A DNA stretch of 60,885 nt, filler included, from Sphacelaria rigidula (lineage: Eukaryota), in the NCBI GenBank assembly GCA_964200075.2. It is 6 parts of 6 records of this genome, joined end to end, with 100 filler letters (N's around TTAATTAATTAA, not from the genome) between each part and the next. Parts side by side here need not be neighbours in the genome. Positions count along the whole stretch, not along the records: positions 30,496 to 40,559 come from CAXNAA020007220.1; 5 more parts are not named here. One strand, given 5' to 3'. The translations under genes and the position numbers were made by a program. The notes under the pieces are model-generated. The model was not told the DNA's origin, made no database searches, and saw only the letters and a list, made by a program, of their open reading frames with translations. Of the stretch, positions 2,379 to 60,885 are shown piece after piece. Numbering within the stretch: position 1 is the first letter of the stretch; every line of letters starts with the position of its first letter.

Positions 2379-2400
2379 CAACGATGGAATGATAATAAAA

Positions 2401-2495: not shown

Positions 2496-2509
2496 AGAGC
2501 GGACCCCCG

Positions 2510-7880: not shown

Positions 7881-8503
7881 GTCGTTGTTTCGGTCGATCA
7901 CAGCCTCGCGGTTCTGCAGACAAATCGGCCGCCACACTTCAAGGCGAGAAGCTGGAAATTCCGTGCTTTCGGGCTGCATTGTGCGCTCGCGATGCAATGA
8001 GGATCTGCAAAGAAAAGGTTCGCTCGGCAGATGAATGATGCAATGAACCAAGGTTACGGCAAGCGACAAATATGGAGTGCCCCCCCCCTCCCTCCCGCCC
8101 CCCCCGGGTGGGTACCTCTTCTTAAACATCGATTTTCCTCGACAAAATATGTCCTGGACTCCCCCGAGAGATCTGGTCACACTGCTCTGTCCCCACATTA
8201 CTCTTGTTCTGTCTCTCTTTTATCTTTTTCCTTCCTTTAGCTTCCTTCAGCGAGCGCTTCCGCTGGTTCATCTTGGATACGTCTATCGTGTAGATGATGA
8301 CCACGGCTGGATTTCTCGGGGATGAGTTAAGGCTTGACGAACAATTCACCCATCCGTCCTTCCTTTCATACATCAACTAATCACTTGAAAGATCCTAACA
8401 AAATAGTCTCTTTGAATAATCACAACATGATTTGGTTCCCATCTGAGACTCCAACGAAATCGTGAGGTGATATGGAAGTATCAGCCCCTGTATCATCAGA
8501 ATA

Positions 8504-10066: not shown

Positions 10067-10166
10067 NNNNNNNNNNNNNNNNNNNNNNNNNNNNNNNNNN
10101 NNNNNNNNNNTTAATTAATTAANNNNNNNNNNNNNNNNNNNNNNNNNNNNNNNNNNNNNNNNNNNN
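10067..10166. other. Artificial contig spacer (N44-TTAATTAATTAA-N44)
   Basis: Exactly 100 bp, with a 12-mer carrying stops in all six frames at 10111-10122. The same spacer recurs every ~10,164 bp. Confidence 0.98.
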
Positions 10167-10710
10167 TCACACATGCCTTTACGCATGCCTCACTCAGGCC
10201 GGAGTGGTTCGTTGTGAATCGCAGCGAGATGTACCGTATTTGAACAGCATCGCCCTTACTCTTGTTCGTATTGTTGCCTTGTTTTGCGGCTAGGTCGACG
10301 GAGCCACTTTCGTGTCATTTGACTTTTGGTGCCGTATTTCACGTGCGTTCGCTAGGCTATGCGAACGACATTGCTTGTGGGGGGGAACATGTTGGAAAAC
10401 ACAACATGTAGAGCAATGCGCTGTAGCACTCTGGTGACCAATCATCGGTTTGGTGGTAGCGCTCATCATCTCATTACCCAACAGGGACTGACATGTCATG
10501 AAGGTAAACGGTAGTTGGATGTAGGGAGGAACGGAACAAGATCGACAGTTTTCATCTCGGGTTGCCTTCTATCTTCAAGAACGTAGTCCCGAAACAACGC
10601 CGAGGCTTTCAAACAAACGAACGTCGATGGTTCCCACCAGTCGATTTGACTGTGTGTCGTCAGTTTCCTCGACAGGTAAGTGATGCCGCGATAACCCCCC
10701 CCCCCTAAAG

Positions 10711-10793
10711 TGCTCCGTCTCGAAAGGGATGCGTCGTCAATGGTTAAACGGCAAGCAACAAAAGAGTAACCCCCTCCCCCCCCCCCCCCCCCC
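10711..10793 (+). mobile_element. 5'-truncated poly(C)-tailed element, subfamily A
   Basis: tgctccgtctcgaaagggatgcgtcgtcaatggtt...gcaagcaacaaaagagtaa plus a C tail. Flanks are C11-taaag and Cn-tagag (degenerate TSD). Confidence 0.8.
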
Positions 10794-13848: not shown

Positions 13849-14420
13849 CAAGGTTGTGTTCGGTAAGGTACGTTTTTCTGTATACCCGGGGTATTTTTCC
13901 GGGTATGTACCGTACCCGNNNNNNNNNGCTGTAAGACTTTCATACCGGTACCCGACAGTTCTTAAATCTCTGTAAGACTCTCATACTCTTACCCGATAGT
14001 TCTGTGAGTTCTGTACATAACATTTACCCGAACCCGAAGGGCGGGTATACCCGAAAAGAGTTACCCGATTGCCGGTACCGGTTCTCTGTAAGCCTCCCAT
14101 ACCGTACGCGACAAGTTCTGTAAAGTCTGTAAGACTTTCATACCGGTACCCGAAAGTTCTGTAAGTTCTGTACACAATATTTACCCGAACCGGAGGGGCG
14201 GGTACACCCGAAGAGAGTTACCCGATTGCCGGCACCTGTTCTCCGTAAGCCTCCCGTACCGTACCCGACAAGTTCTGTAAAGTCTGTAAGACTTTCATAC
14301 CGGTACCCGAAAGTTCTGTAAACTCTGAGACTTCCATACCGGTACCCGATATTTCGGTAAACTCTGTACGGAATCTCATACCCAACAGAACGTACCCGTA
14401 CCTTATAGAACACAACCTCG
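13849..14420. mobile_element. Non-autonomous hAT/P-like element with internal GTACCCG-rich tandem repeats (9-N gap at 13919-13927)
   Basis: Perfect 8-bp TSD GAATTTTC (13841-13848 and 14421-14428). 24-bp TIRs CAAGGTTGTGTTCGGTAAGGTACG and rc CGAGGTTGTGTTCTATAAGGTACG. Interior has repeated ctgtaagactttcataccggtacccga blocks. Confidence 0.85.
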
Positions 14421-15419: not shown

Positions 15420-15989
15420 TTAACTGGTGAAGCATCGACGGCGAGTGATGGAAGCTGGGAGCCCCAACGCCCCTCCCATTCGGTTGGCGTCGGTTGGCGA
15501 CGACGCTGTAAAACACGCCTCTCACCGCGTAAGCTAGCCAACCGATTTGCCGTGTTTTTCTGCGCTTGCGTTTGTTTGCGGTAACCATGATGGTCGAACT
15601 AGATAATGTTGTGCGGAGTGGGAGAACCTCTATTCGGCGCAAAGAGGATGATCATACTACGTAGTGTTTTCATCGTTAGACACCCATGAGGCAGTGCTTA
15701 ACCCAAAGCTGTCTCTGGAAGTGGCGGTACCAGAAAATGAAGAAATTCATTAGAGGGTGTCATCCAAATGCAAGATAATTGGTACGCTTCGGGCCGAACA
15801 ATGTTAGCGGGATGCAGCTCACCCTTGATGCGACTCGCCAAGCGCACCACGGCGCTTCGCGCTTGGTGTTTTAGTGCGAATCTGGTCCGTCGAAAATCCG
15901 GCGCGCTCCGTTCTGGCTCTGTAGGGATGCGAGGTCAATGGTCATACGACTACGGCATGCAAGATCATGAGTACAACCCCCCTCCCCCC
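15420..15989 (+). mobile_element. 5'-truncated poly(C)-tailed element, subfamily B (longest copy; 5' edge approximate)
   Basis: Aligns with 2510-3028. Ends gggatgcgaggtcaatggtcatacgactacggcatgcaagatcatgagtacaacccccctccccccc. Confidence 0.75.
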
Positions 15990-18900
15990 CGGGCTGGTGA
16001 GGGGGTCTCGCGGGGGGCCCGCGGGAGCGCCGCCGGAGGCAAAACGAACGCGGTGTTCTGGTTGTTTCCCCTTCAATTTTTTTTCCCGTGGTATCTGTAA
16101 CCCTGTTGAGAAAAAATACATGTATCATCACTAGTTGGAGTAGAGTGCACCTTTTCTATTGGTACCGGGCACGAGCTCAGATTTCGTGTTGTCCGGCCAC
16201 AAATATATCAAACATTGGATAACGCCCCCTTTCGACGAGATTGCTACGGGGGAGACGCTTTGATTTTTTCCCAGGGAAAAGGAATGGGGGGAGAAGGGGA
16301 TCATAACGGAATTGTATGTGGTGGGTATGTTGCTTCTGTGTGTGTGTGTTTTTTTTTTCTTGTAGTCTACTCTGCTTGTTCTATCTTGCGTGTTCGGGGG
16401 CATCGCTATCCATCTGTAAATGCCTACAGTAAATATATAGCGAAAAGGGTAAATTTTACCCTCCATCGTCTCTGGAGACGGGGTAGAGTAATTTCATTCT
16501 GGGTGGGGAGAAATGGGGGCGGGGGGGCGGTGGTAAATACGCTATCGTTAACACATTTCATTGACGTTTTCGTGTTGTTTGGGTGTATCGCGATTGGTGA
16601 CATTTGATTTGGGGAAACGGTGCGTATATTGAAGGGCCGTAGGCAAAAGTGACTCGACCCACGCTTTTTTCAACCATAAAGGGATCTGGGCAAAACACAG
16701 GTACGGGCTCTGTACTCGCGCCTCTGAAATAGATCGAAATCCAATCCTTACGCCAAGACAAGTCAACCACGGCCTCGACAGAGCACGGAAGTCGACTTTC
16801 ACGGAAATTTCGGGCGCGCCCACGGACAAAATAGTGCCGCGGGCATTTGATCTCCGGATGAGGAAGTATTAGTCATATATTGTTTTTCCCATGTTTTTAG
16901 TATCGCGACAAAACTTTTTCCATTTGCACAGTATAGGCCAAAACGGTGGATACCACCCCTAAATTCAGCGTAGAAAGCCCCCCCACCCCTGCCCCCCCCT
17001 CTCGTGGACAGCTGTTTTCATATCCCCTGCGCCACCATACACCCCCCCACCCAAATTCGACTCCACCAATGTTGTTGATGAACTATTATGCGCCACCTGT
17101 TATTTTTTTGGCTCTTGATGAGTTCCGTAAATGATTGAAGTCGAAAATCTCAGAAACGTGGCCTAGAATAGAGTTGAACCACCCCATTCAAAAATCCTTA
17201 TGAAATATAGCCGATGATGGGAACTTCAAATAAACTGGACAGCTGGCGCCCCGTTGCCAGTTCCAGTTTAACTCTTGTTCCAGTTTAAACGGTGGTATCA
17301 ACTGGTCCAGTTCACAGCCCTACTTCCTGAGGTTTTCGAATCCAACAGAATTGCGGCAAGACAACCCAGAACGCTGGTGTTATCTCCCATGTTTTAGTGC
17401 TGACGAAGTCCATCGGCAGTGTCTGGGTTTGCATTGGATTTGTTCAATGCAGAACGAGCTGGTGATATGTATGTGTACCTATTCGATATTGAATGGTACT
17501 CGATACCCGATGAAAACTGCACCTTTTGTAGCTTACTTCTGGGCACTGCGAACAAACCAAATAGCGACGACGGTAAAACTTAGCGTTGTACGTATCCCTT
17601 GAGAGAACTGCCCTATTTTTTCACCGGTCGCCGTGCCGTTACCTTAACAGAGTCGCGTCCCAACGTCTGTGTGTGAGAATGTATCCCAGACAATCTCCTC
17701 AGTAGTGTGTTCATGATCCCGTCGTTTGCTTCTCCGCGTGTTGGTGCGTCCCTTGTCTTATTTGTTCCCCGTCACCCAGAAACAGTGTATGGATTAGGCG
17801 CGAACGCTCTGTCTGAATCGGCCGTGCTCAAGATTTTTGAGGTGAGATAGTCAAGTGAGACAAGCATGCAGACTGACTGCCGACGACCCGACTGTTGGAA
17901 AGCTGCTGTCTTTATGGAGTTGAAGAGGTTTGAAGGCGAGCCCCTGCAAGGCACGAGAGGTTTCCATATAGAATCGGCGACGGCCTTCCGCGACCTCGAC
18001 TGTTTTTGCCGTTTATACGCCATGCTCCTCGCGAGTCGGCAGCGGTGAGACGACTTTTTCAGATCTTGTGCCTGCCGAGCACATTGGCTACTGTTCTGAG
18101 GCGCGTTCATGGGTAAAATCCTGTCACCGAATCATTTATTCTATTTTTCGGCCCCAACGTGAAGTTCGAAGAGATGGACAAAAAATTGGACCGTTTGAAC
18201 TCGTCACGCCCACACGTATCACGAATGACCGCATGAGTTGTGCGGGGAATTTGACAAGACTGCGATGTTTTGCACGCCGCTGTAAGAGTTTTCCGATATC
18301 TTCCGCACCTAAACCGTTCTCATAGCACAGTCATTCATGTCACAGCGCCCGGCGTGGGTTTGGCAAAGAGCTTTGCTGTCGTATAACCGGAGATGCACTG
18401 AGATGGAAGTATCATAGAGACCGTGTATCAGTGTGTCAACACAGAGGTAGACCTCAACGAAAATATGCATGGATCTGGGAACGTAAACCGTAACAGTACG
18501 CCATCATATGCTAGAATGACTCGCAGCCCATGAACGTCCCAACCGCAGATGAACAAGCACCACATTCCTATTTCGGTGCACTCTGCATTTCTTGGAACTT
18601 TGAAAAGGTCCGAAGACTCCTACCGCAGCAGTACCAGCATCACCCATGCCACACAGCGCGGGGTGATGGTGGTGAGGTGGTGTACGCCCGAGTACTACCT
18701 GGCATCTGGTTCGCAGCGATGACCGAAGCAGCGTAGAGATGCCTCCCTCGGCTTTGTGCACGAGGATGAGATAATGTGCTTGTCTCTTCAGACCCTCTCG
18801 CACATATGATTTTCTCAGATCTTGATGCACCACACATACATGTATACTGTCTCTGAGAGCCACCGTCAATGTGAGATGACATGCACCACACCAAGGGAAC

Positions 18901-19651: not shown

Positions 19652-19799
19652 GCGAAGCAGCGTCCATTGACGGATCCGCTGATCGTGCACGTGCCGGACA
19701 CCGCGAGTGCCCTGGCGTTCTTGGACTTTGACGGCGAGGGAGGGGGGGGGGACAAAGCTCGCCGCTTGCTTGCTCTGCTCGGAGAGAAGTTGTGGCCCG
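19652..19799 (+). CDS. Isolated internal exon of an unidentified gene
   Basis: Pyrimidine tract then CAG| acceptor, G|GTGAGT donor. Open GC3-rich frame AKQRPLTDPLIVHVPDTASALAFLDFDGEGGGGDKARRLLALLGEKLWP(G). No partner exon found. Confidence 0.5.
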
Positions 19800-20231: not shown

Positions 20232-20331
20232 NNNNNNNNNNNNNNNNNNNNNNNNNNNNNNNNNNNNNNNNNNNNTTAATTAATTAANNNNNNNNNNNNN
20301 NNNNNNNNNNNNNNNNNNNNNNNNNNNNNNN
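20232..20331. other. Artificial contig spacer
   Basis: Same N44-TTAATTAATTAA-N44 structure. Confidence 0.98.
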
Positions 20332-22061: not shown

Positions 22062-22785
22062 GTAATAATCATGTCGGTGACAATGATTTCTTCGTTGTGG
22101 TACTCGATGCTGCTTCCGGAGGGGGGGGGGGAGGGGGGGAAGAAAAGCGGTTGCGAAGCTTGGGTGCTGTGCTGTCTCATGCAGCGCTGTGACGTGATTG
22201 GTTTCATTGTCGCACATGACCTGATCCCAGTCGTGGTGACGGGACAGACGCCTCCAAGATGAGTCAAACGAAAACCCTGGTTGCAGATGAAGGGAAGTCC
22301 AAAAAACATGAGACGGAGGGGAAACAATAGACGAAGTGGCCTCACAACAACAAACCAGGACCAGGAATCAAGTAGGATAACGAGAGGGAAGAAACGGAGA
22401 AGCGTTGGAAAATAAAAGAAGTGTTGCGACGAAAAAGAATAACGAAATACAACTAGAACTGGCCGGTCGATGCAGCACGGCTTCAGGTGAGAAAGGTTGC
22501 GCCCATACGCCTCACGAAATTAAAAGGCCGTGGGAACGAGCGGCTTGCGGCCCAGCGGTTTCGGACGATACTATTTGGGCACAAGCTCTGACCCATCCTG
22601 AGCCCCACGGAAACAAGGCCCCACATTTATTTTGTAAAACACTGAGAGGAAAGAAATAGAGAGAGAGACAGAGAAAGGGAGAGCAGAGAAGAAGGAAAAT
22701 GCGGAAGCGGCGAAATCCGCGGACGAGAGGGAGCATGTACAATAGCACAAATCAACAATACCGCAAGACCACAAGCCAAGGGGGG

Positions 22786-22835
22786 GGGGTGTACTCATGA
22801 TCATGCATGCCATAGTCATCAGACCATTGACCTCG
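22786..22835 (-). mobile_element. Short poly(C)-tailed element, subfamily B, intronic
   Basis: G-run plus tgtactcatgatcatgcatgccatagtcatcagaccattgacctcg, flanked by direct repeat CAAGCCAAGGGGGG (22772-22785 and 22836-22849). Confidence 0.85.
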
Positions 22836-23623
22836 CAAGCCAAGGGGGGAGAAGGCACTAATCGATGAGAGAAGACAGGGGTATATATAGCATATCACTC
22901 TCCGTGCTAACCCAGCTTCCCCTACTCATCCCTGACTAGTTACAAAGCGGGACACTCTCTCGACCATTTCCATCCTGAACTCCTCGCGAGCTGTTGCTGT
23001 AGCCGTTGCTGTATCATCAGTAGGGGCTTTCTCTCCGATTGGCGGCTCTCGGCGCAGAAGCCTTCCGTTTGTGGTGAAGGTTCTATTGGAGTTTGTCTTC
23101 GCGTCGCCGCGTGCCCTCGAACTGTTCCCCCACGTTCTCGACTCCAAGATGCCATTTGCTCGTATTCTTGGCCGCAGTTACCCATTTCGTGGTGTCGTTA
23201 TTTTGAGCTTGCTGTTGTAACTCTTGTGTACTCTACTGCATCAACTATATTCTTGTGGCTGAGCTCTCTGTGTACCGTATTCTAGCGGTTGACGCTGTGC
23301 TTTGCTACGCTGTGGTGTACCGCTGCTGTGCCGGGCTGCACTACTGTATTCTTTGTATAGCGTGTTGCTGTTGGGTCGATGCCATGGCTTCAGCTACACG
23401 CTGCACGTGGCACGTTGACAGAACACTCGTCTAGGGCGCCCAGTTACGTGATCACAAATGTGATGTATTTCCATCTCCACCGCAACATATGCCATCAAGA
23501 CACAATACTACTGTACTGTGCTACCATACTACATGCTACCATGCTGTCATGCTATCATGCGGTGGTGTTTGATCGCGCTATCGGATGACGCCTCTTCCCT
23601 TCCAACATGTGCATCGATCGCAG

Positions 23624-25165: not shown

Positions 25166-26048
25166 GTTGATCGATCGATTTCCTCGCATTGGCTGATTCG
25201 CTGCAAATACAACGACATGGTCACAAAGTGGACGTGCTTGAGGCAAATGAGCGGAGACATTTGCTTGAGAAAAGCAGAATAGGAAAGGCAAAGGAAGAGG
25301 GGAGGTACCAAGAGACGATCGACCGATTGATGATGTTGATGTTCCTCGTTCGTGTTTTGGGATGTCTGCTCGAACCTACTCCACAGAAATGACCTTCGCT
25401 CGATCAGAGTTTGAATCAGGAATGCCACACTACCAGTAACCGCATGGCATCGTCTATCCGGTCTTGATTTTTCGCGCTCTCACTTCCATCCCGGGGCATC
25501 TGCACATTCGTTTGGGGTGTTTTTCGTGTTTGATCGAAGTGTGTCAGGTCGACTTTGACTTTCGCCAGACTGGCTCCGTTGAACCCGAAAACTGTAAATG
25601 TGGGGAAGCAGAATGTTTCATGACGTAGACGCGTGAGCGTGGTTTTGCAAGGGCGGTGTGGGTATTGTTGTATTACAGGCCGTCACGTCTGTTTCTCGCT
25701 CGATCAAACTGAACGCATTTCGTGGACACTGGAAAAGCTGACGGCGGGTTGCTGTTGAGCTCTCACCCTCTCGTCCTGTCCGCTTCGGGGTCATCTCTGG
25801 TCGTGACTAGCGATCCCTTCACAGCACGTGCTGCCGAGAAGGGTTTGCTTTCAGTGACGTCGCGACCGAGCAAATTACGCTTGACCAAGTTCGATGTGTG
25901 TTGGTAACCAACATTGACTTGAACGTGATCCATATTGCACTGATTACCTGGTCCAGCATCGTGGCGAAACCGTCAAACTCATTTTCCTGCTCCTGCCCTG
26001 CCTCTGACTGCCTGTGCGCAACGCACACACGCGAAAAAACACGTGCAG

Positions 26049-26675
26049 GGCACGATGTTGCGGGCCTTCATTTCGTCGTTCGCCACCCTGCCGGCCACGA
26101 CTCGCCGAGAGCTGGACGAGGTGGTGATGGTAGATCTCTGTGGTTACCACGGGCCGAGAAATGTTCGCAATCTCACGGCGGCGATGGAGTCCATCGCTTC
26201 AGCCACCGGCTTCAGGCTGGTGAAGTGGGTTCCAGGCAGCAGCATCTTCGCCGTGCTGGTCCACGAGACTGGCCTGCCAGAGGTTGTTGTCATCGGTTGG
26301 GTGACTGGCGTGACGGTTTACGCGGCCATAGTCATCGTCACTAGCATCTGGCTGGTTATCGCTCGCCTGCTTGCCGTCGCCAGGCACACCGTCCCGTCAG
26401 CCCTCGGACGGGGGTTATCGGCAGCCAGGCACGCCATGGCCAGCGCGTTGCAGCGGTTCGTGAACAGCGTCCGCGCAGTCGATGACCTCTTCGCTCGCGG
26501 TCGCCACAGGATCGAGGCAGCCTGGAACCACCCCGTGCAGGCAGCAGACGACCTATTCATGTTCCTGCTGGCGGTGCTGAGGGTGGATGGCCGAGTGTTG
26601 TCCGCGATGTTCGGGGTCATGACCGGGACAGTGCTGGTGCTTGGGTGGCTGGTGGTGGGCGTGGGGCAGGGCTAG
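26049..26675 (+). CDS. Coiled-coil / TM protein, terminal exon with hydrophobic segments
   Basis: CAG| acceptor, phase 0, 208 codons to TAG. Hydrophobic stretches VVVIGWVTGVTVYAAIVIVTSIWLVIA and VLSAMFGVMTGTVLVLGWLVVGV. Confidence 0.75.
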   Translation, partial: GTMLRAFISSFATLPATTRRELDEVVMVDLCGYHGPRNVRNLTAAMESIASATGFRLVKWVPGSSIFAVLVHETGLPEVVVIGWVTGVTVYAAIVIVTSIWLVIARLLAVARHTVPSALGRGLSAARHAMASALQRFVNSVRAVDDLFARGRHRIEAAWNHPVQAADDLFMFLLAVLRVDGRVLSAMFGVMTGTVLVLGWLVVGVGQG

Positions 26676-27050: not shown

Positions 27051-27127
27051 GGGGGGGGGCGCACTCATTTGTTGCTTGCCTTAGTCGTGTGACCATTGTC
27101 CGCGCATCTCTTTCGAGACGGAGCACC
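27051..27127 (-). mobile_element. 5'-truncated poly(C)-tailed element, subfamily A
   Basis: G9-cgcactcatttgttgcttgccttagtc...gagacggagcacc. Degenerate TSD gctgtaggcataagggg / gctgcaggcatgggg. Confidence 0.8.
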
Positions 27128-30100
27128 TGCTGCAGGCATGGGGTGAGAAAGGGGGTGAACGACGAAAGCAGGGTGTGTATGGGCTTGCAGGCCTCTACAT
27201 TGACACAAAATGCGCAGGGAGTGGGGAGAAGCGCGCCAGTCGATTCGGCTGCTGGGTTTCCGGGTAAAGCGTTCCTTCATGATGATGCACTGTCACCTTT
27301 GGCATGAGTGACGCCACTGCGTGCATGCCATGTCCCACGGAAAACACGAGGAGACTGAGGGATGTATCTCGGGGCCGGGGGAGAGGGGTAGTCATTAGTG
27401 CGGTGTGGTGATGATGTCCACATTTCGTTTCCTTTTCGTTCCCGTTTGTTTTCTCGGTTTGTCATCAGTCGTTTTCTGCCAGACAACCCTCCGGTGCACT
27501 AATTTCGCGTTGCACTTGGGATATGTGCAGTACTATCCAAAAATTAGTTTTATTTCATTTCCGTTCGATTTGATTCGATCTGATTTGTCCTTTCGTTTAT
27601 GCTGTTCGATGCTTGTTTATTTTCGTTTTCATTTTCGCGCTGACAGCGTGGCTACTTATTTTGTTTTTGCAGTTTTGGCAGCGTTTCGGGGCGCCTTCAG
27701 TCCCACCTGTGCAGAGGTCTTGTGATTATTTGTAGCGGTGTTCCCTCGCAGCGGTCTATATTCTGTCGCCGACTCCTTCTACTTCGATCATGTTATCCCC
27801 AGAGCCCGGAAGATGGGGGGGCGATCTCTGGACATGCTTAAGTTAGCGTTGGGGTGCGTGATGCAAGTGCGGAGATAGGTCGGACATACGAAGGTGAATC
27901 TCGCACACTTGTCACACTTGTCACGTGCTAAGTTACGTTAGGTCCTCTGAAGTAACCATTTTTCGATTTTCCCCGCTCCTGGGGATGGAAAATCGGCGGG
28001 CGATAAAAGACAACTCGACTGCCAGCATCATGTTCTTTCGTCAACCCGCGATGCGGGAGGATGGTACTGTTTGTATGTGTCTGGCGAACACCACGCCACG
28101 TGCCGTTGTTGACAATCGAATGCATGTGACTGGCATGGACTTCATACAGGGCTTAAAGCGTGGGAGAGAGAGAGAGACAATATGTGTGTGAGAAGCTAGT
28201 CAGTGATGAATGGCGCAAAATACTGTTGAAAGGGATCGATATGTGCGGTAGAGATGAACATGGTGATGGGCACAGTTCAAACCCCACGCCTGATGAGTCG
28301 CCGCCTCGACGCAAGACCTCTGGTCGAACGGCTCACTGTACCTATTCGGCGGCGTTCCACTGCGTCAAAGCTTAGACCTCCTAAAAGGAAAGCTTCGTTT
28401 GTCAGACGCGAAGGCGGACAGGTTCGATTCCGTGTTTGATGCTTCACACTGGAGAGCCGGTTGTTCTCCGTGGCTTCGTTGGTTCCAGACCTGAGGAAGG
28501 GGCTGGTTGTAGGTTGTGTTGCACGAGGCCTAAACCGCGAGCATCGTGTCTGTTGCGGTTAGGGGCGTGGAAATCACGATGCCGCTTCCTGTGTTCGTCA
28601 AGATTGTTGCAAGGTCACGAGCGTGCTCGGCGTTGGCTCGGCACCCCGACGATTTGGTAATGCGTGTTGCGATAACAGGGAGTCACAACCTCGATTTGTG
28701 TAAGAGATACTGATGTATGTCTCGGTCGCCACAGGGTTGAAGGAAGTAGAATGGCGAGCATCGCTTCTCGTATTTGACACGTTCATGATGATGTACGCGT
28801 TTGCTTGCGACGTGTTATAGGTGATGGTTGATGTTCCCGTGTGGATTGGCTTAAAGATTTCGCCGGTGTGCTGTATACACGACAGCAGAGGAATCTTGCA
28901 AACTTTTCCATCTCTTCACGCTATTTTTTGTTTGTTTGTTCCCGTGTTCCCAAAAAGTACAGAGATGAAGAGTGGGGGTAACGCCAAGCGTCTGTGGTGT
29001 AGGGCAAGTGACGCTGGAGGTACTTTGTTTGGAGGGTTGTAGGTCATCATCCGCTGTGGCCGTTGTTCGGTTGAGATGTAGTTCATGTTTTGAGTCGGAC
29101 AGGATTTTGCTGCTGACGTTTCTTCCAGCATCATTTTGCCCATTCAGTTTGTGCAGTAAGTGGGGAAGTGAGTGCCCTTGACCATTGCAGTGGAGGTGAA
29201 AAAACGATATCATACGCCATGGGTGAACTTTGATAAATGAACACCTCGTTGAGGCACGTGCTGTGCTACGTCGGCCGCGAAGTGTGCTGCGTGCTTTTGT
29301 ACGACGTCTTACGCGCATGTCTCGGTAAAGCTCACCAGACAGCGAGAGCGTGGCGGTTGTTGTGCGTGTATGCACCTCAAGCCACCCGTCGAGGGCCTCC
29401 AGTATAAATAGTGTGTTTTTTTTCTTGGTCTAATTGTCAGAATCATTGTTTCGGTTGTCGTACAGTGTGCCATTGCCGAAGGGGTGGGCCCGTTTGTTTG
29501 TTTGTTACTCGGTAGGTTGCGCCCCTGTTTCCTTCACTCCGCTTTTGCTCTTACTTGGTGGTTTGTATGAGCCCAGTGGAGGGGAGCACCGCGATATTTG
29601 CAAATCACGATTTTGCCGTTTCTGAGAATATCCTCTACTGAACACGTCTTGTCCGTACCTCGTCGCCTGGGGTTCCCGAGGTCTTGGTAGTGAGGAGGAT
29701 GCTTGCCGTAGAGGACTGTTGCTTAACAGCGAGCTCGAAGACCTGCCGTGTTGATGTGTGTGTGTATATCTGACGCGGACCGCCATCGTATGTACCAAAC
29801 AAAGTACGAGTGCGACTGAGAACCATTTCTTTGGAGATGTCGTGGACAGCAATCTATGATATTGTGAAGTGCCGCCGTTTGTCTTGTCTTGTATTCAGTC
29901 CCCGTTATATCGTTATTTGAGACTTACTACGGGACACCCGGAAACCGAACACAAAGGGGCTTGTGTTTGTGGCGGGCACAAAAGCGTTTCGTGTGTTTTG
30001 GCGACGTGTCTCCTAGCGTGGAGCGCGCCTCGTCGTTCGGGTTGATGTAGACACATTCATAACGTTCCTTATCGGATGTATGTACCGTATTCGCACGCTG

Positions 30101-30395: not shown

Positions 30396-30495
30396 NNNNN
30401 NNNNNNNNNNNNNNNNNNNNNNNNNNNNNNNNNNNNNNNTTAATTAATTAANNNNNNNNNNNNNNNNNNNNNNNNNNNNNNNNNNNNNNNNNNNN
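30396..30495. other. Artificial contig spacer
   Basis: Same N44-TTAATTAATTAA-N44 structure. Confidence 0.98.
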
Positions 30496-35948: not shown

Positions 35949-38900
35949 TGTTGGGATCGCAGGTACCGGTCACGAAGGTTTGGTCTGATGTGGGGGCGTG
36001 TAATGTGGGATAGCAGTTGTTATACATGAATTACTCTTCTCTTTGACCGTGTACCCCGGTGGGTGGTTTGTATCTGTCTTGCCCAGAAGCGGCACCTTGA
36101 ACACTATCTTCTTTCTACACTCTGAAGCAGCCTGTCTGCTAGCTTGGCTTAACTGCCATTGCGCCAACTCTAGCGACCACGACAAAGGGGTTCTGAGTGA
36201 ATCCTTCAACAGGTTATGAGCCTCGATCGTGTTGGTGCTGACGGAGCGGTGGACCTAGGAAGAAAGGGCAGCAGCAAAAGGACATATCTTTGCTGGAAAA
36301 CAACGTGAGTTGAGTCAAAGTAATACGGCACTGTGTGTGTCTGGCACTACAACAGTGCGTTGTACTACGATTGAGGACGGCACTCACTTTGTGCGTACCT
36401 GGCATCATCGCAGTACGGAGATCGCTGCGGTACGAAGTGGTATTTTTTTTAAAAGCAGGATAACTGCAGGTGAACAGGAGTAGCTCTGCATTGCGACTAC
36501 TCTCGACTGGCGCTACAGCAGGGTACCACAACCTGAACCGAGTAGGGCGTGTGATCTATTCTTTGAGGGGACGACACCAGCGTGCGCAGCACCACGGCTG
36601 ACCTGCGGGAACAGTAACAGTAAGTAGTCGGATCCTTTTTTTCGGAAATAAGTTTTCCCGCGCCTACTACAGACGTGCCCAACCATGTACGGTGTGCGTG
36701 ACAACTTGTAAGCTATTTTCCGTTCCAGTGCTGCCCAGCTGGTCACATTAAGCGGTGTCACCAGGTGCCGCTGTTGTGGTGGGGGCCATATCTGGACTCG
36801 ATTCTTTCGGTGTCTTTTTTTTCGCGACCTCCCTTGACAAGTCAAGCGGCGGTGACCAAGGCCGATTGTGTGGTGGTATCGGAACACTTTATATACTATA
36901 CGCGTTACGTTGGAGCAAAGCGACGAGGAGGATTATCATGGCGGACAATGAGAGTATTAGTGCGGTACTTAAGTTGTGTACAAGATTTGATGGCAAAGAC
37001 AAGGCTAGTTTCCGAGAGTACCAAGACAAACTACGGGTGATCCTCTCCCTCCACCATAATGCGGCCGCAGAAATTCTGCAGGGGGGGGGCGTACTCATTT
37101 GTTGCTTGCCTTAGTCATTTGACCATGAATTCTGCAGGGGCGGCAGAGACCCGCACGCACCGTAATTGGTGATGAACCGTCAACCCGTGATACGGCAGCC
37201 TCACTGGCTTGGAATCGCGCAAACAGTGACCTGTTCACCATCTTATTTTTCACCACCGAGAAATCAGCGAACAATACCGTGAGACCTTTCATGGGGAAAA
37301 TCCAGGAGGATGGAGTTGGTAATGGCCGAGCAGCGTGGGTAGTGCTGCAAGAAAAATATGACGGCAACACAAAAGAGGCCCGTAGGGAATTCCATGATAA
37401 ACTCCACAATACGACGATGCAGTCAGGGGACGATCCGGAAGATTTTTTGTTTGTCATGGATGGCTACCGTGACCGCCTGGAGGAAATGGGGCAGTCGACG
37501 GAGAGGAGGCCGGGGGTCCGGGGTTCTAGCGCACAGCTCGCAACCTACTGTGGGGGATCAGGAAGACACTTTCCCCACTAGTGCGCGCGCTGGCCGTAAT
37601 AGCCGTAGTCCACTACGTCTGGTTGATGTTTGGGAGCTCATTATATCCCCGGGCCACGTCGAACCTCGACGACACCGCTGAAATATTTGGCGGGATCACC
37701 GATGCTGATGATGGGACGGCTCTCGCGGCAGGACCTGCTCTTGACAAGTGGACTGAGGGTAGCAATAGCCATGTCAGTGTCATGGTAGACAGTAGTGCGT
37801 CGGGACATTACTTCGACGATACCCTCATCCCGGGGCTACGGTATAAACTCCACAACTACCAAGAACTGGCTACCCCGCGTACTATCACCACCGCAGGGTG
37901 GCATCACCTGGCAGTGGTTGGTAAAGGACTGCTCCGCGGCCACATCCAAGACGGCGAAGAGGTCAAACGCCTGGTTCAGATTTCGTGTTTGGTCGTGCAT
38001 GGCTTGGGGCGGAACTTGTTCTCCGTCAAACAAGCAACATGAAATGGTGTTGTGTCTATTTTTGACATGAACAACCCAAGACTGGAGACGAACAACTTCA
38101 CCGTTCCGCTCCAGGAACTGGAGAGCGACTTGTATTTCTTCTCTCTGGAACTAAGCAGCGGCAACAACGCATCTGGACTGGCTTTGCAAGCTGCAGACGC
38201 CGCCACGCTGTGGCATGGGAGGATGGGACACTTAAACAGCAATAGTTTCAATCTTCTCAAGAACGTCGGAAGAAACGGGGTGGGTTTCGGTGAAGTCGTT
38301 CCGGACTGCGATATTTGTGCCGTTGGGAAAAGTCATCAACTGGCCCACCCGAAGACAGCCAACAACAAAGTGCAACGCGCTTTTCAACTGGTCATGATAG
38401 ATTTGATGGGACCGATCATGCCGGAAGCGCTGGGAGGCTTCAAGTACGTCTGCAAGATCTCCGATGAGTATAACAGATGGACAGAGATTTGCCTTCAAAA
38501 ATCCAAGGACGGCACTCTTCATGCATTTCAGTCCCACGTACAGTCAACGATCATTCCTGGCGGTATTCGGATCGAACGACTAAGGGCAGATAAAGGCGGT
38601 GAGTTCATCGGCAACGAGTTCAAGTCGTACTGCCGACAGACGGGCATATTGTTAGAGTTTGCAAGCACCAATACACCACAACAAATCGGCCTGTCAGAAG
38701 GCGTGGGAAGGACGCTTGCAGCCATGGTCCGGTGCATGCTTGCTGACAGTGGTTTGCCGACCTTTCTCTGGGGGCAATTGATGTTCACAGCGGCCTATCT
38801 TGCAAACAGATCACCGCATTCGGCGCTTGACATGCAGTCGCCTCATAAGATGTGAAGGGGACAGAACCGAATCTCAAACACCTTCGAGTTGTCGGAGCCA

Positions 38901-40133
38901 GGGCTTTCGTACATATCGAGCGGCATACTCCGAAAACTTGCTCTCAAAGCAGTTGAAGGACGACTAGTTTGGTACAGCAATGACAGTCAGAGCTACCGAG
39001 TCTACAACCCGGCCACGCGACGTATCATTGAGAGCAAGAACGTCGTCTTCATCGAGACTCCGACACACCTTACCCCGACGGGAGAGTCACAACTTCGGAT
39101 ACACACATTTTCACTTGGTGACCAGGAATGCAACAACAGAGAGGGCCACAATTACGTCACCGACGACGACTTCTTCCGTGATCTTCGCGACCACACCTCC
39201 GTACAAGCTCAACTGGCTCACACCTCCGTTGATCATACCACTGCCAGCGGGACTTCTAACGATCCACAGGTGACCGAGCTTCTGGAAAGAATCAGCGCAA
39301 TCACCAAGCGGGACATGCTGCACGACGATGACACACCTTGTGAAGAGACGTCGCCAACAGCATCACCGGAGAGCCGTTCGCCGCTGGAACAACCTGCACC
39401 CCCTTCTCGGGACGAAGTTAGCCAGTCCACATCATCAGCCGAATCACCACTGCTCTACCGCTCTCGACACTCTCGCCATCAAGTAACTCCCGCCGTGACA
39501 CGCGCAGGCACTGCAGCGCGCTCCTTCCGGGGACGCAACATCAACGACAGCGCAGCTTCTGCGCACCTTTCAGCCACTGTGGACGACTAAATGCTCTCCG
39601 AGCTACGGCGACTGCAAATACACACCAACGCGCTCCTACCAGATGTCGTGCACCAGACGTTTGGGGCAGAATCAATCGTGGAGTACGCCCACACAACTAC
39701 CAACCTCTCGAGCTGTCCAGTGGGGGAGAAACCCGAAAGAACCCCAACCACGTTCAATGAGGCCATGAGTCTCCCCGAAAAGGAATCATAGAAGGCGGCA
39801 TCAGATAAGGAGATGGATAGCCTAAGAAGAAATAACGTGTATACTCTAGTGCCGTCAAGCTCCGTCCCAACTGGACACAGGTTAATCGGGTCCCGATGGG
39901 TGTACAAGAAGAAGCGGATTCCTCGCACAAGGCCCGAGTCGTCATGCAGGGTTGGAGACAAGTCCCTGGCGTCGACTGTGGCAGCACTTCCGCACCGGTC
40001 TGCAGGATCCAAAGCTTCCGCATGGTATTAGCTGTAGCGGCGGAGTATGACTTGGGGTGTTGGCAACTGGACTATAACACCGCCTTTCTGAACGCCGAAC
40101 TCAAGGAAGAAGTTTACGTCAAAATGGCGCCAG
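35949..40133 (+). mobile_element. Decayed Ty1/copia element: 5' LTR (35949-36211), PBS, gag, protease, integrase, start of RT
   Basis: LTR TGTTG...CAACA, then GGTTATGAGCC (copia-type PBS for a tRNAi-Met fragment). gag from 36938 (AWVVLQEKY...MQSGDDPEDF), VDSSASGHY, LWHGRMGHLN..CDICAVGKS, DLMGP, RLRADKGGEF, KARVVMQG, WQLDYNTAFLNA..EEVYVKMAPG. Confidence 0.93.
37085..37127 (-). mobile_element. 43-bp poly(C)-tailed insertion (subfamily A) disrupting copia gag
   Basis: Perfect 13-bp TSD AATTCTGCAGGGG (37072-37084 and 37128-37140). Removing it restores the gag frame AEILQGRQRPART. Confidence 0.9.
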
Positions 40134-40559
40134 GAGGATCACCCCGCAGCGCACGACGAAACGCGTTGACGCGGCAATGCAATATGCCGCGCAGGCGCTC
40201 CGCTTTTGAGTCGCTGAGGCCTTTCGCCACAGCGTCCGTCACGCTCTCCACCAGCGCGACCTTCCGAGCAGACTCCTCTTCCGCCGGAACCTTATACATA
40301 CCCGGGCCGCGCTCTACTAAGCGTTCCACCGCCGCATCCCTCTCTTCGGCCACCTGCCCCCCAGCCTCCTGGAGAGCATCAACCGACAAGCGTACGCCAC
40401 GACTGCCCAAAAAGGCGGGCGTCTCCAAACGTGGACCACGCGGAGACATCTCTGCCTTCATGGAGTCCCACAACCGCCCAGCGTTGGCTCCAATATCGTG
40501 AAGCACAGGTAACTCCTGAAGAATAGCGCCATCCGACCCCGGCATGATCGCAAACGAGA
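40134..40559 (-). mobile_element. Ty3/gypsy pol fragment (protease-RT linker) abutting and truncating the copia RT
   Basis: ORF IMPGSD...AVERLVERGP...RLRGILHCRVNAFRRALRGDPP resembles the pre-RT region of gypsy elements. Abrupt junction after copia VYVKMAPG. Confidence 0.6.
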
Positions 40560-40659
40560 NNNNNNNNNNNNNNNNNNNNNNNNNNNNNNNNNNNNNNNNN
40601 NNNTTAATTAATTAANNNNNNNNNNNNNNNNNNNNNNNNNNNNNNNNNNNNNNNNNNNN
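40560..40659. other. Artificial contig spacer
   Basis: Same N44-TTAATTAATTAA-N44 structure. Confidence 0.98.
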
Positions 40660-40735
40660 GGGGGGCGTACTCATTTGTTGCTTGCCTTAGTCATTTGACC
40701 ATTGACCACGCATCCCTTTCGAGACGGAGCACCGG
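40660..40735 (-). mobile_element. 5'-truncated poly(C)-tailed element, subfamily A (tail at contig edge)
   Basis: ggggggcgtactcatttgttgcttgccttagtcatttgaccattgaccacgcatccctttcgagacggagcacc, followed by a G-run. Confidence 0.85.
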
Positions 40736-40884
40736 TGGGGGGGGCGAAGAAGCACCGCAGATCCCCGTCGGTAGTGGAGGGTGCGAAGTGCCTTCACCGC
40801 CCCCGCGAGGGGGGGGGGAAAGGCGGGGTGGTACCAGAGATCCCCGTTCCACATTTTGTCAAAGGAGGGGATGAGGGATAGCTG

Positions 40885-40887
<3 letters not shown>

Positions 40888-40932
<45 letters not shown>
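40888..40932. repeat. (TCA)n microsatellite
   Basis: About 15 TCA units; gives a spurious poly-D ORF. Confidence 0.95.
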
Positions 40933-41110
40933 ACGCCAACATCAGCGCCGACGCCGACACCAACGCCGACGCTCACATCGGCATCGAACACTCCCTCGTC
41001 GCCCGCACTGTCAATATCTTCCACGGGTCCCTCGCAAGACGGCGGGGGGGAGCGGCGACGCTCCCCAACTCCCGAGGACCGAGTAACACCGTCTTACGTG
41101 GACCGACGAG

Positions 41111-48301: not shown

Positions 48302-49030
48302 CAATCCAATTTACAGTACCCTCGCGGGGACTGTCAGACCAAGCCTTCTGCACTCTCCGACGTGCGTTAAAGTGCAAGCTTCACAACGTCAATACATCAA
48401 CACCCAAATCATCAGTGGAATACATACAAGCTCTGCGCCATCGCGAAGAGAGCTCAAACTTCCGCAGATGATGTGAAAGATGCGCGGCCACATGAGCGCA
48501 GAAAATGAACCTGTTCTCGGGATAGAGTCGCACTGCACGGGTGGACACTTTGCCACACCCTCGGGACGTTTGAAGGAAGAGACCCTATGGTGACCCTCTA
48601 CAAGGTATTGAATCCTCTTACGACTCTTTGGCGACTATCTCTACAATGTACTGCTTGTTGTATGAACCCTGTTGCGAGAGGAAAAATCTACCGATGTGGT
48701 GAACATGATTTTCACGACGGGAGAACAATGCGGAGAACCGGAAAATGATGTCGTCCATAGCAATTCAAGGATAATCAATGGAATAGATAGTCACAAGCTA
48801 CGTACTTGCTTATTCATCTGGGCATCAAAACGATGGACACGAGACGTCAAACAAACCTGGGCATTTCCCCAACATATCTCACACACCCCTTTCCTCAGAC
48901 TCGTAGCCTCCAAGCGCATATTCGATCACAACTCAACTTCGGTGTCCTTTACGCCACACCCTCTACGCACCCTCGACAATCCTCGGCTTCCAGTTTGCTA
49001 GTCCCGTGATGCGTGTACTTTACTCGTAGA

Positions 49031-49405
49031 GCCGATCGCCCCGGTGGCTCAGTTGGTAACCTCGAAACCTTCCGACTGTCAGGCCATGGCTTCAAATCTC
49101 GGTGTAGTCACACGATCTGGGATTTTTTCTCGCACCATGTCGAAGAGTGGGTAGCGGCTATGTCGTAGGTACACAATATTCGACTTCACGGTCGACGAGG
49201 CAAAGGGACCACTTGACCCCTCTCGCGATAAAGAATGAGGCAAGCACCGTAGAAGGACGGTGGAGAACAAGAACGAAATTAACTCAATTATTTATATGTA
49301 TAATCCCGGGTTGGTTTTTCTCCTGTGTGACCCCGGTTGAATCGCCCGCATATACCGGGAGGCTTGGACTGGCGTCTAGAATTGATGGGATGACAACACA
49401 CACAG
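49031..49405 (+). mobile_element. tRNA-derived SINE, near full length (~370 bp)
   Basis: A box TGGCTCAGTTGG, degenerate B box, body shared with 59010-59378 (rc), tail gggatgacaacacacaca. Confidence 0.8.
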
Positions 49406-50364
49406 TGTATTACCCACTTCCAACTATTAGGATATGTAACTTGCCCCTCCGACAATGTCAAGATATCAAACGCGAGTGAACGCAGAATCAAATACAACTT
49501 ACACAACATGTCCAGAGCAATGCTACGGTAGAGAGGGGTTGCGCTCTTTCAGCGAAAACGATATTCGGGGCTGCTCGAGGTTTTGCACGGATCATTTTGA
49601 TAACCGCCATCACTTTTACTTGAGTATAAATACTGATAATGATGCCGATTTACGGAAGGGCCTCTGTGTGCAAACAGCACGTCTCTTGGAGTCCGGTCCT
49701 CGGGGTAAGTAAGCCCCATATATTTGGGCTCTTACAAAAAGAAACCTAGAAACAAGAAGTGTAACCCCTACCAAAGCATTGCTCTCCACCGCAGACCGCA
49801 CAAACCGGTTTGACCCTGCAGTGGGGGGGTCTTTTCTGGCGCGTTGCGTACCGATCGGGACGTTCCCCTGTACATACGTTTTTGGCCGATGGGGCGCGTG
49901 CTTTCGACCCCCGCCGACCGAATCCTACAAAACAATGCTGATACCTGACGTCAACGCCCCATCCCTGCACTGACGCACGGGCGATAGTTTGAGCGCTAAG
50001 GGAAGCGAAACAGAAGAACCCTTATACCACGTCTTCCAACGGTTGTGGGCGGATCGATACTTGCGTGAAACCGACACCAGGAGGTAGGTTCACTTCCCTA
50101 TGCGTTGTTTACACCAAGCGTACAGCCTGGACACGTTCTACGTAACTACGCAGGCTTTGCATCCACCCGCACCACAGATTCCACAGAGAACGCATATGAG
50201 AATCAGCCACATCACGAAGCTCTGTCCTAGAGAAAAGTCCCCCGTACCTGAACAGGAGTATGCGGAGGGGGTATAGAGAGCATAGTGAGATAATGGGTGA
50301 GCACATTTTGAACGATACCAGAGAGTACCAGAGAATGGTATTTTGACAAAAGACAAAGCCAACG

Positions 50365-50434
50365 AGCTCCGTCTTGAAAGGGATGCGTGGTCAATGGTCA
50401 AACGACTAAGGTAAGCAATAAACGAGTTCGCCCC
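50365..50434 (+). mobile_element. 5'-truncated poly(C)-family element, subfamily A (diverged)
   Basis: gctccgtcttgaaagggatgcgtggtcaatggtcaaacgactaaggtaagcaataaacgagttcgcccc. Confidence 0.7.
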
Positions 50435-50618
50435 ACCTCAACAGGCTGACACTTTGCTACACTCTCGAAACACCTTCTGGAGGTAACGACCCTATGGCAA
50501 TCATCTCCAAGGTATAAGACCCCCTTGCGACCCTGTGGCGACCCTGTTTAGACCCTCTACCATGTGCCGCCTTTACGTACCCTGCGGCGAGAGCAAAATG
50601 TTCACCTGTCCCCCCCCA

Positions 50619-50722
50619 CTGGCATGAAATCGTTTGATGCATTAGACAGTAGGAAGAAAACGATGGCTATACTAGGAGATAGATGGTGGCCAGAGACGGC
50701 GAAACAGAACGGGGATAAGATA
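50619..50722 (+). mobile_element. Probable LINE ORF2 C-terminal fragment (runs off contig end)
   Basis: GMKSFDALDSRKKTMAILGDRWWPETAKQNGDKI begins right after a C8 run, as expected for a 5'-truncated insertion of the poly(C) family. Family link is inferred. Confidence 0.5.
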
Positions 50723-50822
50723 NNNNNNNNNNNNNNNNNNNNNNNNNNNNNNNNNNNNNNNNNNNNTTAATTAATTAANNNNNNNNNNNNNNNNNNNNNN
50801 NNNNNNNNNNNNNNNNNNNNNN
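50723..50822. other. Artificial contig spacer
   Basis: Same N44-TTAATTAATTAA-N44 structure. Confidence 0.98.
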
Positions 50823-59650: not shown

Positions 59651-60885
59651 CTGATTTTGAGTGATTTATGCGGCAAATATATATTATCGAAAGTATCTCA
59701 GCGCGATAGGCATTCGCAGCATGTAGTTGTGCCCAACGCAGAATTGTACGCGCTGACCCTCACCGAAGTATGGCGAGGTTGTCACAAATCCTATCTGAGG
59801 GGGAGGGTGCTAGTGGTTTCCGTCGCTGGATCAGACCCCGTTTGGGACCGTCAGGAGGGGTATTCAAACTACAGCTGATGCGGGTTCTAAATTTAAAGAA
59901 ACGGCCCGGATTTTGCAAGCGCGTTGCACTACAGTAGTATTGTTCGACAGCCTCGCTGCGAAACCGGTTCTCAACACAGCCACGGCGGAAGTGGCCATAC
60001 GAGGCGTGATAGCTGGTTCAGACTGGATGAAGCGCCTCGCATGGGCACCACTGGCGAAACAATCCCAAGCATGGGACTAACCCTTACCCCCCTTGTGAGT
60101 GTCTGCAGCTTTATTGTGGGGCATCCATTTTACCCAACTGACGGCTGTACTGTAGTGATGCTGTACTCTGGTCATGGTATATCTCAGCAGACTGCTGAAT
60201 GATGCTGCGTTTCAAAGATCGCTGGCGTCTGTCGCCGCATTGAATCGTTTCGCTGACGGCGGTCGTCGCTGGCGCAACAGTATGAAGTCTCCCTCAGATA
60301 CTCAACAAGAGGCGCTCGAAAACTCGATGACTAGTCCAAAGAAGTATGTTTTCGGCATGCTTTGTTACGTGTTCCGTAGCGCTTAGACGCAGGTCCTGCT
60401 CAAAAAAAGATGCCGCACAATCGATAACGGCGGTTTTTCTGTTGGACTGCTCATAATCATGCTTGCCCTGCCGTGCAGAAACTTCTGGGTTAGGGTTACA
60501 TGGTCGAAACCGGTTGCGAATCCCGAGCCTTTTGGACAAAGTAAATGAAATTTCGATGGTCCGTTGAACCGCACCCAAATGTTGAACCTCAAGAACGAAT
60601 CTAGGCTGTTCTATGTTGTATGTAAGTTTGTATGAAGAGCTACCTCGGTGCAGATATGCGTAGATATCGCCATGCGGAGCTCAGTTTTTCGAGTTTGGAC
60701 CTGAATTCTTACACGTTGTTTTCAAGGTACTCACGGACACATTCCAAATATCCCTGATATTCTTTTCTTTGTTGCCGAGATTCGATCCATCAATTATGCA
60801 ACGCCTTTTCTAAGTGGGAGTCCTGCTACGGTGGGGGGGGGGGGGGGGGGGTTGGGGGCCATTTCTTTCCAGAAATTCCGCTTCA

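Follow-up and report, generated by a model that had tools for sequence, protein, structure and literature searches.

The stretch of DNA analysed here (the window) comprises 60,885 nucleotides, filler included, of the brown alga Sphacelaria rigidula. It consists of six pieces of ~10 kb joined by linkers of the form N44-TTAATTAATTAA-N44 (10067-10166, 20232-20331, 30396-30495, 40560-40659 and 50723-50822); adjoining pieces are not genomic neighbours. The window has a G+C content of ~50% and contains only six stop-to-stop frames of at least 200 amino acids (aa). Three of these, at 38043-40501, are of copia type and match the Pfam domains gag_pre-integrase, rve, SH3_retrovirus and RVT_2. The subject of this study is a 43-nt insert (37085-37127) that lies inside the gag region of this copia element and appears to be the truncated 3' end of a long interspersed nuclear element (LINE) whose tail is made of C.

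The insert is flanked on both sides by an exact 13-bp target-site duplication (TSD). Along 37072-37140 the order is AATTCTGCAGGGG, GGGGG, 37 nt, 1 nt and again AATTCTGCAGGGG; on the minus strand the insert reads ...GCAAGCAACAAATGAGTACG and then C9. In the left TSD copy (37072-37084), GGGG is the target's own G run. The five G that follow (37085-37089; C on the sense strand, here the minus strand) go beyond what the target supplied, as the empty site has GGGG only, and form the tail proper; the whole G run (37081-37089) measures 9 nt. Next come, on the minus strand, the last 37 nt of the LINE (37090-37126), with the end of its open reading frame (ORF; ...MTKASNK, stop) and a 5-nt 3' untranslated region (UTR), then one extra base at the 5' junction (37127, minus strand), recognized by comparison with the LINE sequence, and finally the right TSD copy (37128-37140), of the same sequence as the left one. 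This severely 5'-truncated copy (copy A) is 97.8% identical over 46 nt, run included, to the 3' end of a long LINE copy found outside the window (locus L004; BLAST).

By its place ahead of gag_pre-integrase, rve and RVT_2, the interrupted region is gag; a Pfam match to Retrotran_gag_2 is co-linear, weak and below threshold (E 0.072). From the ATG at 36938 a frame runs without a stop through the left TSD copy, and the sequence directly after the right copy is again open for ~145 aa, so that taking out 56 nt would restore a single frame. We aligned contigs of four public runs to window positions 36500-37700 (runs X1-X3 come from two studies; contig depth in these runs adds up across contigs and does not give a copy number). 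One X2 contig and one X6 contig join 37072 to 37129, skipping 56 nt, with 12 letters at the joint that fit either side. The 749-nt X6 contig (~97% alike) probably represents a further copia copy or the allele of another strain; whichever its origin, copia sequence exists without the insert. The original prediction of a 43-bp insert in copia gag, with a 13-bp TSD and an empty site that can be rebuilt, is thus borne out by the exact TSD, the restored frame and the empty-site contigs. Moreover, loose contig ends beyond 37126 carry on into LINE sequence (845 contigs in X1 and 1,012 in X3), which identifies copy A as a truncated member of a longer element.

Copies in the window and their parent LINE

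With up to 3 mismatches allowed, the 20-mer preceding the tail occurred four times in the window and never in 100 shuffles, and chance is excluded as the source of this recurrence. A nhmmer profile built from the eight visible copies, which match it by construction, detected 11 copies at E <= 1.8e-8, three of them new (50355-50430, 7773-7855 and 2931-3013); four weak matches (E 0.15-3.6) were left uncounted. BLAST with the full LINE added a twelfth copy at 50620-50722. The window thus holds 12 copies on five of its six pieces, about one per 5 kb, and the sixth piece has none. The five further places named at the outset are all real copies, including the one at 22786-22835, whose TSD is exact; recurrence on five pieces was correctly called, and the number of copies was underestimated. 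Copy lengths are 37, 40, 46, 64-70, ~105 nt or more and >4.8 kb, with a constant 3' end throughout. Two subfamilies can be distinguished, the first ending in ...GGCAAGCAACAAATGAGTACG and the second in ...GGCATGCA(A/T)GATCATGAGTACA.

Long copies were obtained outside the window. A search of metagenome contigs with an 18-mer returned 17 loci, of which three are true copies (L002, L004 and L012) and 14 are chance matches. Genome contigs were searched with a 19-mer located ~35 nt upstream of the tail, the tail being thus unselected; one of the 56 loci returned is a true copy (L058) and the other 55 are unrelated bacterial sequence. Among viral contigs, the single DNA match was due to chance and no protein relatives were found; a protein atlas returned only generic clusters of endonuclease and reverse transcriptase (RT) proteins, and a search for dinoflagellate spliced-leader relics gave no match, so that a dinoflagellate origin was dropped.

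All four long external copies extend upstream of the stub into a long open frame, and the LINE is near-complete on three of them, with frames of 1,426 aa (L004), 1,382 aa (L058) and 1,253 aa (L002, cut by the contig end). The L004 frame contains an Exo_endo_phos domain (residues 235-461, E 7e-13) followed by RVT_1 (residues 807-1056, E 1e-30; Pfam). A second LINE protein, P0002, matches RVT_1 (E 8e-33) and Exo_endo_phos (E 3e-11); it also passes the cut-off for Exo_endo_phos_2 (29.2 vs 27.4 bits), whereas the L004 protein stays just under it (24.1 bits). The best solved-structure matches to the RT are L1 ORF2p (E 3e-22) and R2, and a CCHC-like motif (CPCG-x8-H-x4-C) lies downstream of the RT. 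The frame ends in ...GAPSRKGCVVNGQMTKASNK, with its TGA stop inside ...AAATGAGTACG, 5 nt before a C10 run: the 3' UTR is 5 nt long and the C run follows. An ORF that stops this close to the C run settles which strand is sense and shows that the tail lies 3'. In an alignment of 4.9 kb, L004 and L058 are 78% identical, with similarity up to the start of L004, so that the 5' ends of the long copies are not reached and the full-length element would exceed 4.9 kb. No second sense-strand ORF longer than 150 aa was found in L058.

These features point to an APE-type LINE: a non-long-terminal-repeat RT, an APE-type endonuclease, variable TSDs, a constant 3' end and variable 5' truncation. The two marks of the L1 clade, a poly(A) tail and two ORFs, were not seen, as none of 15 tails is A-rich and L058 has no ORF1. 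The single ORF, the very short 3' UTR and the simple-repeat tail, seen in copies whose 5' ends are not reached, are traits of RTE-X, a label that we would apply by analogy with the annotations of Ectocarpus and Saccharina. On this sequence evidence, we regard the insert in copia and its relatives as 5'-truncated coding 3' ends of an autonomous APE-type LINE. They had been read as a retroposon; with the ORF ending 5 nt before the C run, they are not a separate small element. The proposed extension to long copies did succeed in finding the APE endonuclease and the RT (L004, L002 and L058), short of the 5' end.

Named relatives of the LINE protein near the top of the search come from Ectocarpus sp. 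CCAP 1310/34 only (among the best 120 of 468 RT plus C-terminal relatives), with identities of 59%, 66% and 46% across 99%, 70% and 100% of the query, respectively. One Ectocarpus relative ends in nearly the same C-terminal peptide as the LINE. By homology, a brown alga or a close relative is the likely source, and the best-matching public run is labelled 'algae metagenome'. The motif V[VA]NG is found within the last 25 residues in 14 of the 120 relatives listed, some of them only ~40% identical; since the extreme C-terminus overlaps the 3' end of the element, this conservation may reflect an RNA signal rather than protein function. The family is very abundant: in X1-X3, the summed contig depth of the element bin is ~630-1,060x that of the bin before it. 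It also looks recently active.

Two copies in the window (G and K, located below) belong to a different element, ~500 bp long. They are 79% identical over 516 bp, have stops in every frame and have only their last ~52 nt in common with the LINE, whose 3' end they would borrow as a probable non-autonomous partner. In L058, the C13 tail of the LINE is followed, after ~28 nt, by sequence resembling the 5' start of the ~500-bp element (the last ~100 nt of the contig); this junction suggests that ~500 bp is its full length.

The C tail and its target sites

Readable 3' junctions, 11 in the window and four external, are C-rich in 15 of 15 cases and A-rich in none, in line with the C tail without A tail described originally. 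Copy A ends in C9. Copy B (10695-10793, plus strand) has a 5' flank of C11TA, an element at ~10706-10769 and a tail of CCCCCT+C18. Copy C (27051-27140, minus strand) is 68 nt long, with a C9 tail and an imperfect TSD, ~CCCC-ATGCCTGCAGC, showing 1-2 differences. Copy D (40660-40746, minus strand) is a 68-70-nt LINE 3' end (nhmmer E 2e-21, 97% identity to L004); its tail, G6 as written, is cut by the piece start and thus is at least C6, and its 5' flank on the sense strand is C8ACC. Copy E (22772-22849, minus strand, second subfamily) has its element at 22790-22835 and a C10 tail run at 22780-22789, 6 nt of which lie within the TSD. Copy F (5059-5134, plus strand, second subfamily) has a 5' flank of C11TC7, an element at 5078-5117 and the tail CCCTCCCCCTCCCCCCC. 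The two copies of the ~500-bp element, G (15482-15990, plus strand; element 15482-15977) and K (2514-3030, plus strand; element 2514-3013, with a second-subfamily 3' end), end in CCCCCCTCCCCCCC and CCCTCCCCCTCCCACC, respectively, and a truncated member of the same family, copy J (7743-7880, plus strand), ends in a degenerate C-rich tail of 25 nt. The diverged copy H (8000-8105, plus strand) ends in C9TCCCTCCCGC8, and the older copy I (50355-50434, plus strand) in an eroded CCCC. Copy L (50610-50722, plus strand) is a LINE fragment, 94% identical to L004, from a part that lies ~150-260 nt ahead of the 3' end; it is preceded by C8 and cut by the piece end. The external tails are C8, C10, CCTC7TCCTCCC and C13, the last on the copy found with the tail-free anchor (L058).

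The 5' ends of copies B, C and D (10710, 27127 and 40733) fall within 2-4 nt of one another (GGTGCTCC...), ~68 nt from the 3' end, and several tandem copies in the public runs begin near the same point. Truncation may be frequent at this point, or the ~68 nt may be the smallest unit that is mobilised.

The tail is longer than the C run of the target in copies A (9 vs 4), E (10 vs 6) and B (24 vs 11). A and E are the two cleanest cases, and they answer the question of whether the C run exceeds what the target site supplies. Tail interruptions are mostly T, and the three T-interrupted window tails measure 14-17 nt. Copies F and K lie at different loci and have in common the first 13 nt of their interrupted tails, CCCTCCCCCTCCC; because of this common start, the C tail looks templated, copied from the parent element, like the simple-repeat tails of RTE-type LINEs. 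Special chemistry at the RNA 3' end is not required for such a tail. Since U in RNA still pairs with G, T might be tolerated as the usual interruption. In the public runs, loose ends before 37081 (902 contigs in X1, 170 in X2 and 1,033 in X3) have a consensus of 18-21 further G, and the sets of loose ends at 37082-37084 show a G run broken by one A, which is T on the sense strand.

TSDs are readable in five of the 12 copies, measure 13-16 bp and all start with a C run on the sense strand, in agreement with what had been announced for the tail side of the duplication. They are exact for copy A (CCCCTGCAGAATT, 13 bp) and copy E (CCCCCCTTGGCTTG, 14 bp; as written, CAAGCCAAGGGGGG at 22772-22785 and 22836-22849), near-exact for copies B (C11TA) and F (~CCCCCTCCCCCCCA) and also near-exact for copy C. 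In copies A and E the entire C run (4 and 6 nt) lies within the 5' TSD copy and is preceded by a base other than C, which places the presumed nick on the primed strand directly after GGGG or GGGGGG. Independently of the tail, each copy was scored for its longest stretch of C within the 20 nt on its 5' side: a run of at least 4 is present in 9 of 12 copies, compared with 5.4% of 20,000 random sites (binomial P = 7e-10).

Head-to-tail copies separated by a G run only are seen in the public runs as joints that go back, for example 37126 to 37081 (12 contigs in X1 and 17 in X3). Such joints are expected if old tails serve as new targets. L058, where sequence like the start of the ~500-bp element follows the C13 run of the LINE, is a further case of one element next to the C/G run of another. 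In the window, homopolymers of at least 9 nt comprise 14 C/G runs and 6 A/T runs, and 7 of the 14 C/G runs touch a recognised copy.

Proposed priming on G runs and its alternatives

[quoted passage not shown] The endonuclease would nick the target strand just 3' of a G run; the 3'-OH of this run would pair with the C run of the element RNA and prime reverse transcription, and a second nick ~13-16 bp away would create the TSD. Reverse transcription would usually stop early, leaving copies of 37-70 nt only. The RNA would contain the C run, passed down from the parent copy and altered in length by slippage. Each insertion would bring in a fresh C/G run, old tails thereby becoming new targets, from which head-to-tail copies and the spread of C/G homopolymers would follow. 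What we observe directly is the anatomy of the copies with their tails and TSDs, the ORF, the empty site and the abundance, and it is from these that we infer the position of the nick, the pairing step and the templating of the tail. A preference of the endonuclease for G runs is likewise suggested by the insertion sites, although the pairing step may set this preference instead. The tails, the TSD starts and the 5' C runs all agree with the originally proposed mirror image of L1, a G-run 3'-OH priming on a C tail.

Several points weigh against this reading. In copy F the 5' run (19 nt) exceeds the tail (17 nt), which also fits insertion into an existing long run. Exact TSDs are limited to copies A and E, those of B, F and C being near-exact, and the three copies that have no 5' C run (H, I and J) have uncertain 5' limits. 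No TSD was found for L004, L002 and L012, and the near-full-length copies yielded neither a TSD nor a 5' end, the latter not being reached in L004 and L058. Half of the C/G runs of at least 9 nt (7 of 14) touch no recognised copy. The agreement of the loose-end consensus is low (0.39-0.48), so that long runs are common and yet most tails need not reach 20 nt. The consensus fold of the 3' end (-4.5 kcal/mol, compensatory change in 2 of 14 pairs) is too weak for us to propose a recognition hairpin. Finally, a C run in the transcripts and the specificity of the nick are both predictions from DNA sequence.

Two alternatives concern the origin of the tail. The LINE could be tail-less and specific for C/G runs, inserting in pre-existing homopolymers so that all flanking C come from duplicated target. 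It would explain why every readable TSD starts in a C run, why copies B and F are bordered by long runs at either end (F has 19 nt at its 5' side, at least as many as the 17 nt at its 3' side) and why long C/G runs outnumber A/T runs in the window (14 vs 6 at >=9 nt); however, copy A turned an empty site of GGGG only into a run of 9 and copy E went from 6 to 10, intact copies of the LINE, on contigs unrelated to one another, all have C8-C13 at their end, and copies F and K show a common interrupted tail pattern at different loci. We hold this explanation to be quite improbable. Alternatively, the tail could be made afresh, the RT adding untemplated G to the nicked end and the RNA ending exactly in ...GAGTACG. 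R2 is known to add untemplated nucleotides when TPRT begins, and tail length does differ between copies, from 4 to ~26 nt, yet the G runs already present at the targets, the recurring T interruptions and the common 13-nt tail start of F and K would all be left unexplained; moreover, the precise RNA 3' processing that it needs has left no sign. A tail made afresh therefore seems improbable to us.

Two further alternatives concern the nature of the stubs. They could be a stand-alone small retroposon of ~68 nt, either a short interspersed nuclear element (SINE) or a retro-copied small RNA, and the starts of copies B, C and D within 2-4 nt, with several tandem copies of the public runs beginning nearby, would fit this. 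The 68 nt are, however, the in-frame end of the LINE ORF and continue upstream in 4 of 4 long external copies, and other copies end at 37, 40, 46 and ~105 nt or more. Rfam has no match in the window at its gathering score, with chance-level snoRNA and miRNA matches only at E <= 10 (2200-3100 and 48950-50500), and ARAGORN detected no tRNA. A separate small retroposon is accordingly very improbable, and SINE status of the short copies was ruled out on three grounds, their LINE coding sequence and the lack of an Rfam family and of a tRNA. Poly-G is a known artefact of two-colour sequencers, and the strings beside the G run that resemble NotI, EcoRI and PstI sites (GCGGCCGC, GAATTC-like and CTGCAG) recall G/C-tailed cDNA cloning, so that sequencing noise or a cloning or assembly chimera was also considered. 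These strings are, however, in-frame copia coding sequence, present in the empty-site contigs too; the same architecture recurs with different TSDs at 12 places of the window and in four contigs of other assemblies, and the same 3' end lies by long G runs in hundreds to ~1,000 contigs in each of three runs from two studies. The chance of an artefact is close to nil, and we consider this explanation refuted by independent assemblies and locus-specific TSDs. Priming of reverse transcription by G runs on a templated C tail thus remains the reading that we prefer.

Comparison with known retroposons, and other repeats

Mammalian L1 carries a poly(A) tail and is inserted at a nick of the type TTTT/AA, where a T-run primer anneals to the poly(A). 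The Sphacelaria LINE resembles it in its APE endonuclease and RT, its variable TSDs of similar length and its heavy 5' truncation, and also in having a homopolymer tail that merges with a TSD start of the same base and in its insertion into older tails. It differs in that the tail is C and not A, that one ORF was seen, that this ORF extends to 5 nt from the tail and that the sequence relation is distant. Because poly(A) polymerase cannot make a C tail, polyadenylation cannot be the source of the tail.

With RTE and RTE-X LINEs the element has in common a single ORF, a very short 3' UTR, a tail of simple repeats in place of poly(A) and a TSD start that matches the tail; it departs from them in having one C as its repeat unit and in matching the target over a whole G run, not one nucleotide. 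LINEs that target microsatellites were reportedly described by Kojima and Fujiwara in 2004. As in these and in UnaL2, a 3' simple repeat would take part in priming and simple-repeat targets are preferred, but the targets of the present element can be as short as GGGG in unique coding sequence (copy A), which argues for a preference for short G runs and not for residence in long arrays.

Published accounts provide close parallels. Slippage has been reported for the (TGTAA)n tail of UnaL2 (PMC3747384), and the same review by Ohshima lists, in its Table 3, non-A tails for six of six green-alga RTEX families, with the units (CA)n, (CAA)n, (CCAT)n, (ACAATG)n and (CTTGTAA)n, with no (C)n in that list. 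Plant Au-type SINEs end in (T)2-5 (PMC3747384); like the present element they have a non-A homopolymer at the 3' end of a retroposon, whereas the base is T instead of C, the run is very short and Au is a SINE, with no matching homopolymer at the target described there. Nishiyama and Ohshima (2018, PMC6007223) found that the first nucleotide of the TSD correlates with the 3' microsatellite of RTE-related SINEs and LINEs, and proposed that the repeat helps to set the priming site. In Ectocarpus, RTE-X is the most abundant LINE group, with RTEX-1/2_Ec32 and the ~600-bp RTEX-N1_Ec32, which shares their 3' end; the main text of that article is silent on tails and target sites (PMC12477816). The Sphacelaria family has the same organisation, a very abundant LINE next to an abundant non-coding element of 500-600 bp that shares only its 3' end (here copies G and K). 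In Saccharina japonica, RTEX-1 was recently active, and the passages of the genome paper on LINEs name RTE, RTEX, Jockey, L1 and CRE, with no tail data in those passages (PMC4421812). The link to the named RTEX families of Ectocarpus and Saccharina is one of analogy in description, with protein relatives in Ectocarpus.

The pairing of a tail repeat with its target is already known from the RTE-related rule, and only the base is new: with its C tail and its landing beside G runs, the element varies in an unusual way an insertion mechanism that is otherwise familiar. The literature searched, which lay outside Repbase Reports, Dfam and most subscription journals, contained no account of a LINE or SINE with a C tail. 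As far as that search reached, the homopolymer-C form with G-run targets and its abundance are undescribed; the novelty expected at the outset therefore extends to the C tail and not to the principle of tail-target pairing, which was published before (PMC6007223). Curated brown-alga repeat libraries may record the C tail already, in which case the gain would be smaller, a documented mechanism and not a discovery. A bolder proposal, to which we give somewhat less than an even chance, is that a whole brown-alga LINE lineage switched its homopolymer from A to C, with an inherited oligo(C) tail, tolerant of U, that must anneal to a G run laid bare by an endonuclease cutting right behind such runs, as an undescribed mirror image of L1.

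LINE insertion is understood mainly from L1, with its A tail and T-rich nick, and from a few site-specific elements. A very abundant LINE that looks recently active, ends in C and lands at G runs puts this rule to the test with another base pair; it separates tail-primer pairing from polyadenylation and predicts an APE endonuclease with a G-run preference that can be assayed. [quoted passage not shown] In annotation, 40-70 nt of apparently unique sequence beside a C/G homopolymer would in many cases be a LINE stub. If the A-to-C switch is true, the lineage would seed C/G homopolymers by the tens of thousands, each a potential G-quadruplex or i-motif site, and would feed on its own tails; it would then offer a natural system in which to compare pairing with endonuclease choice in the landing sites of LINEs.

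Seven C/G runs of 9-19 nt have no LINE stub (4848-4857, 5258-5266, 9997-10013, 19742-19751, 22121-22139, 40809-40818 and 60833-60851). They may be tails of undetectably short copies, tails of other families or the product of another source of homopolymers.

A second dispersed family of ~370-450 bp is present at 49031-49402 (plus strand), 59377-59016 (minus strand) and 7372-7148 (minus strand), with its head alone at 2401-2496 (plus strand). Its first ~90 nt look tRNA-like by eye only, ARAGORN and Rfam making no call, and it ends in ...GGGATGACAACACACA; it may be a SINE that relies on a LINE whose tail is of (CA)n type. Copy K seems to lie inside or beside one copy of this family. A tandem repeat with a period of ~157 bp, whose copies are 82-88% alike, occupies 13929-14369, directly after a gap of 9 N (13919-13927). 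Microsatellites of the (ATG)n/(CAT)n type with (ATA) units, at 2295-2375 and 40887-40944, are nearly identical as simple repeats. Last, a 243-aa open frame at 25944-26675 (plus strand) gives a weak, sub-threshold match to Tubulin_C (E 0.0075) and may be a decayed gene fragment.

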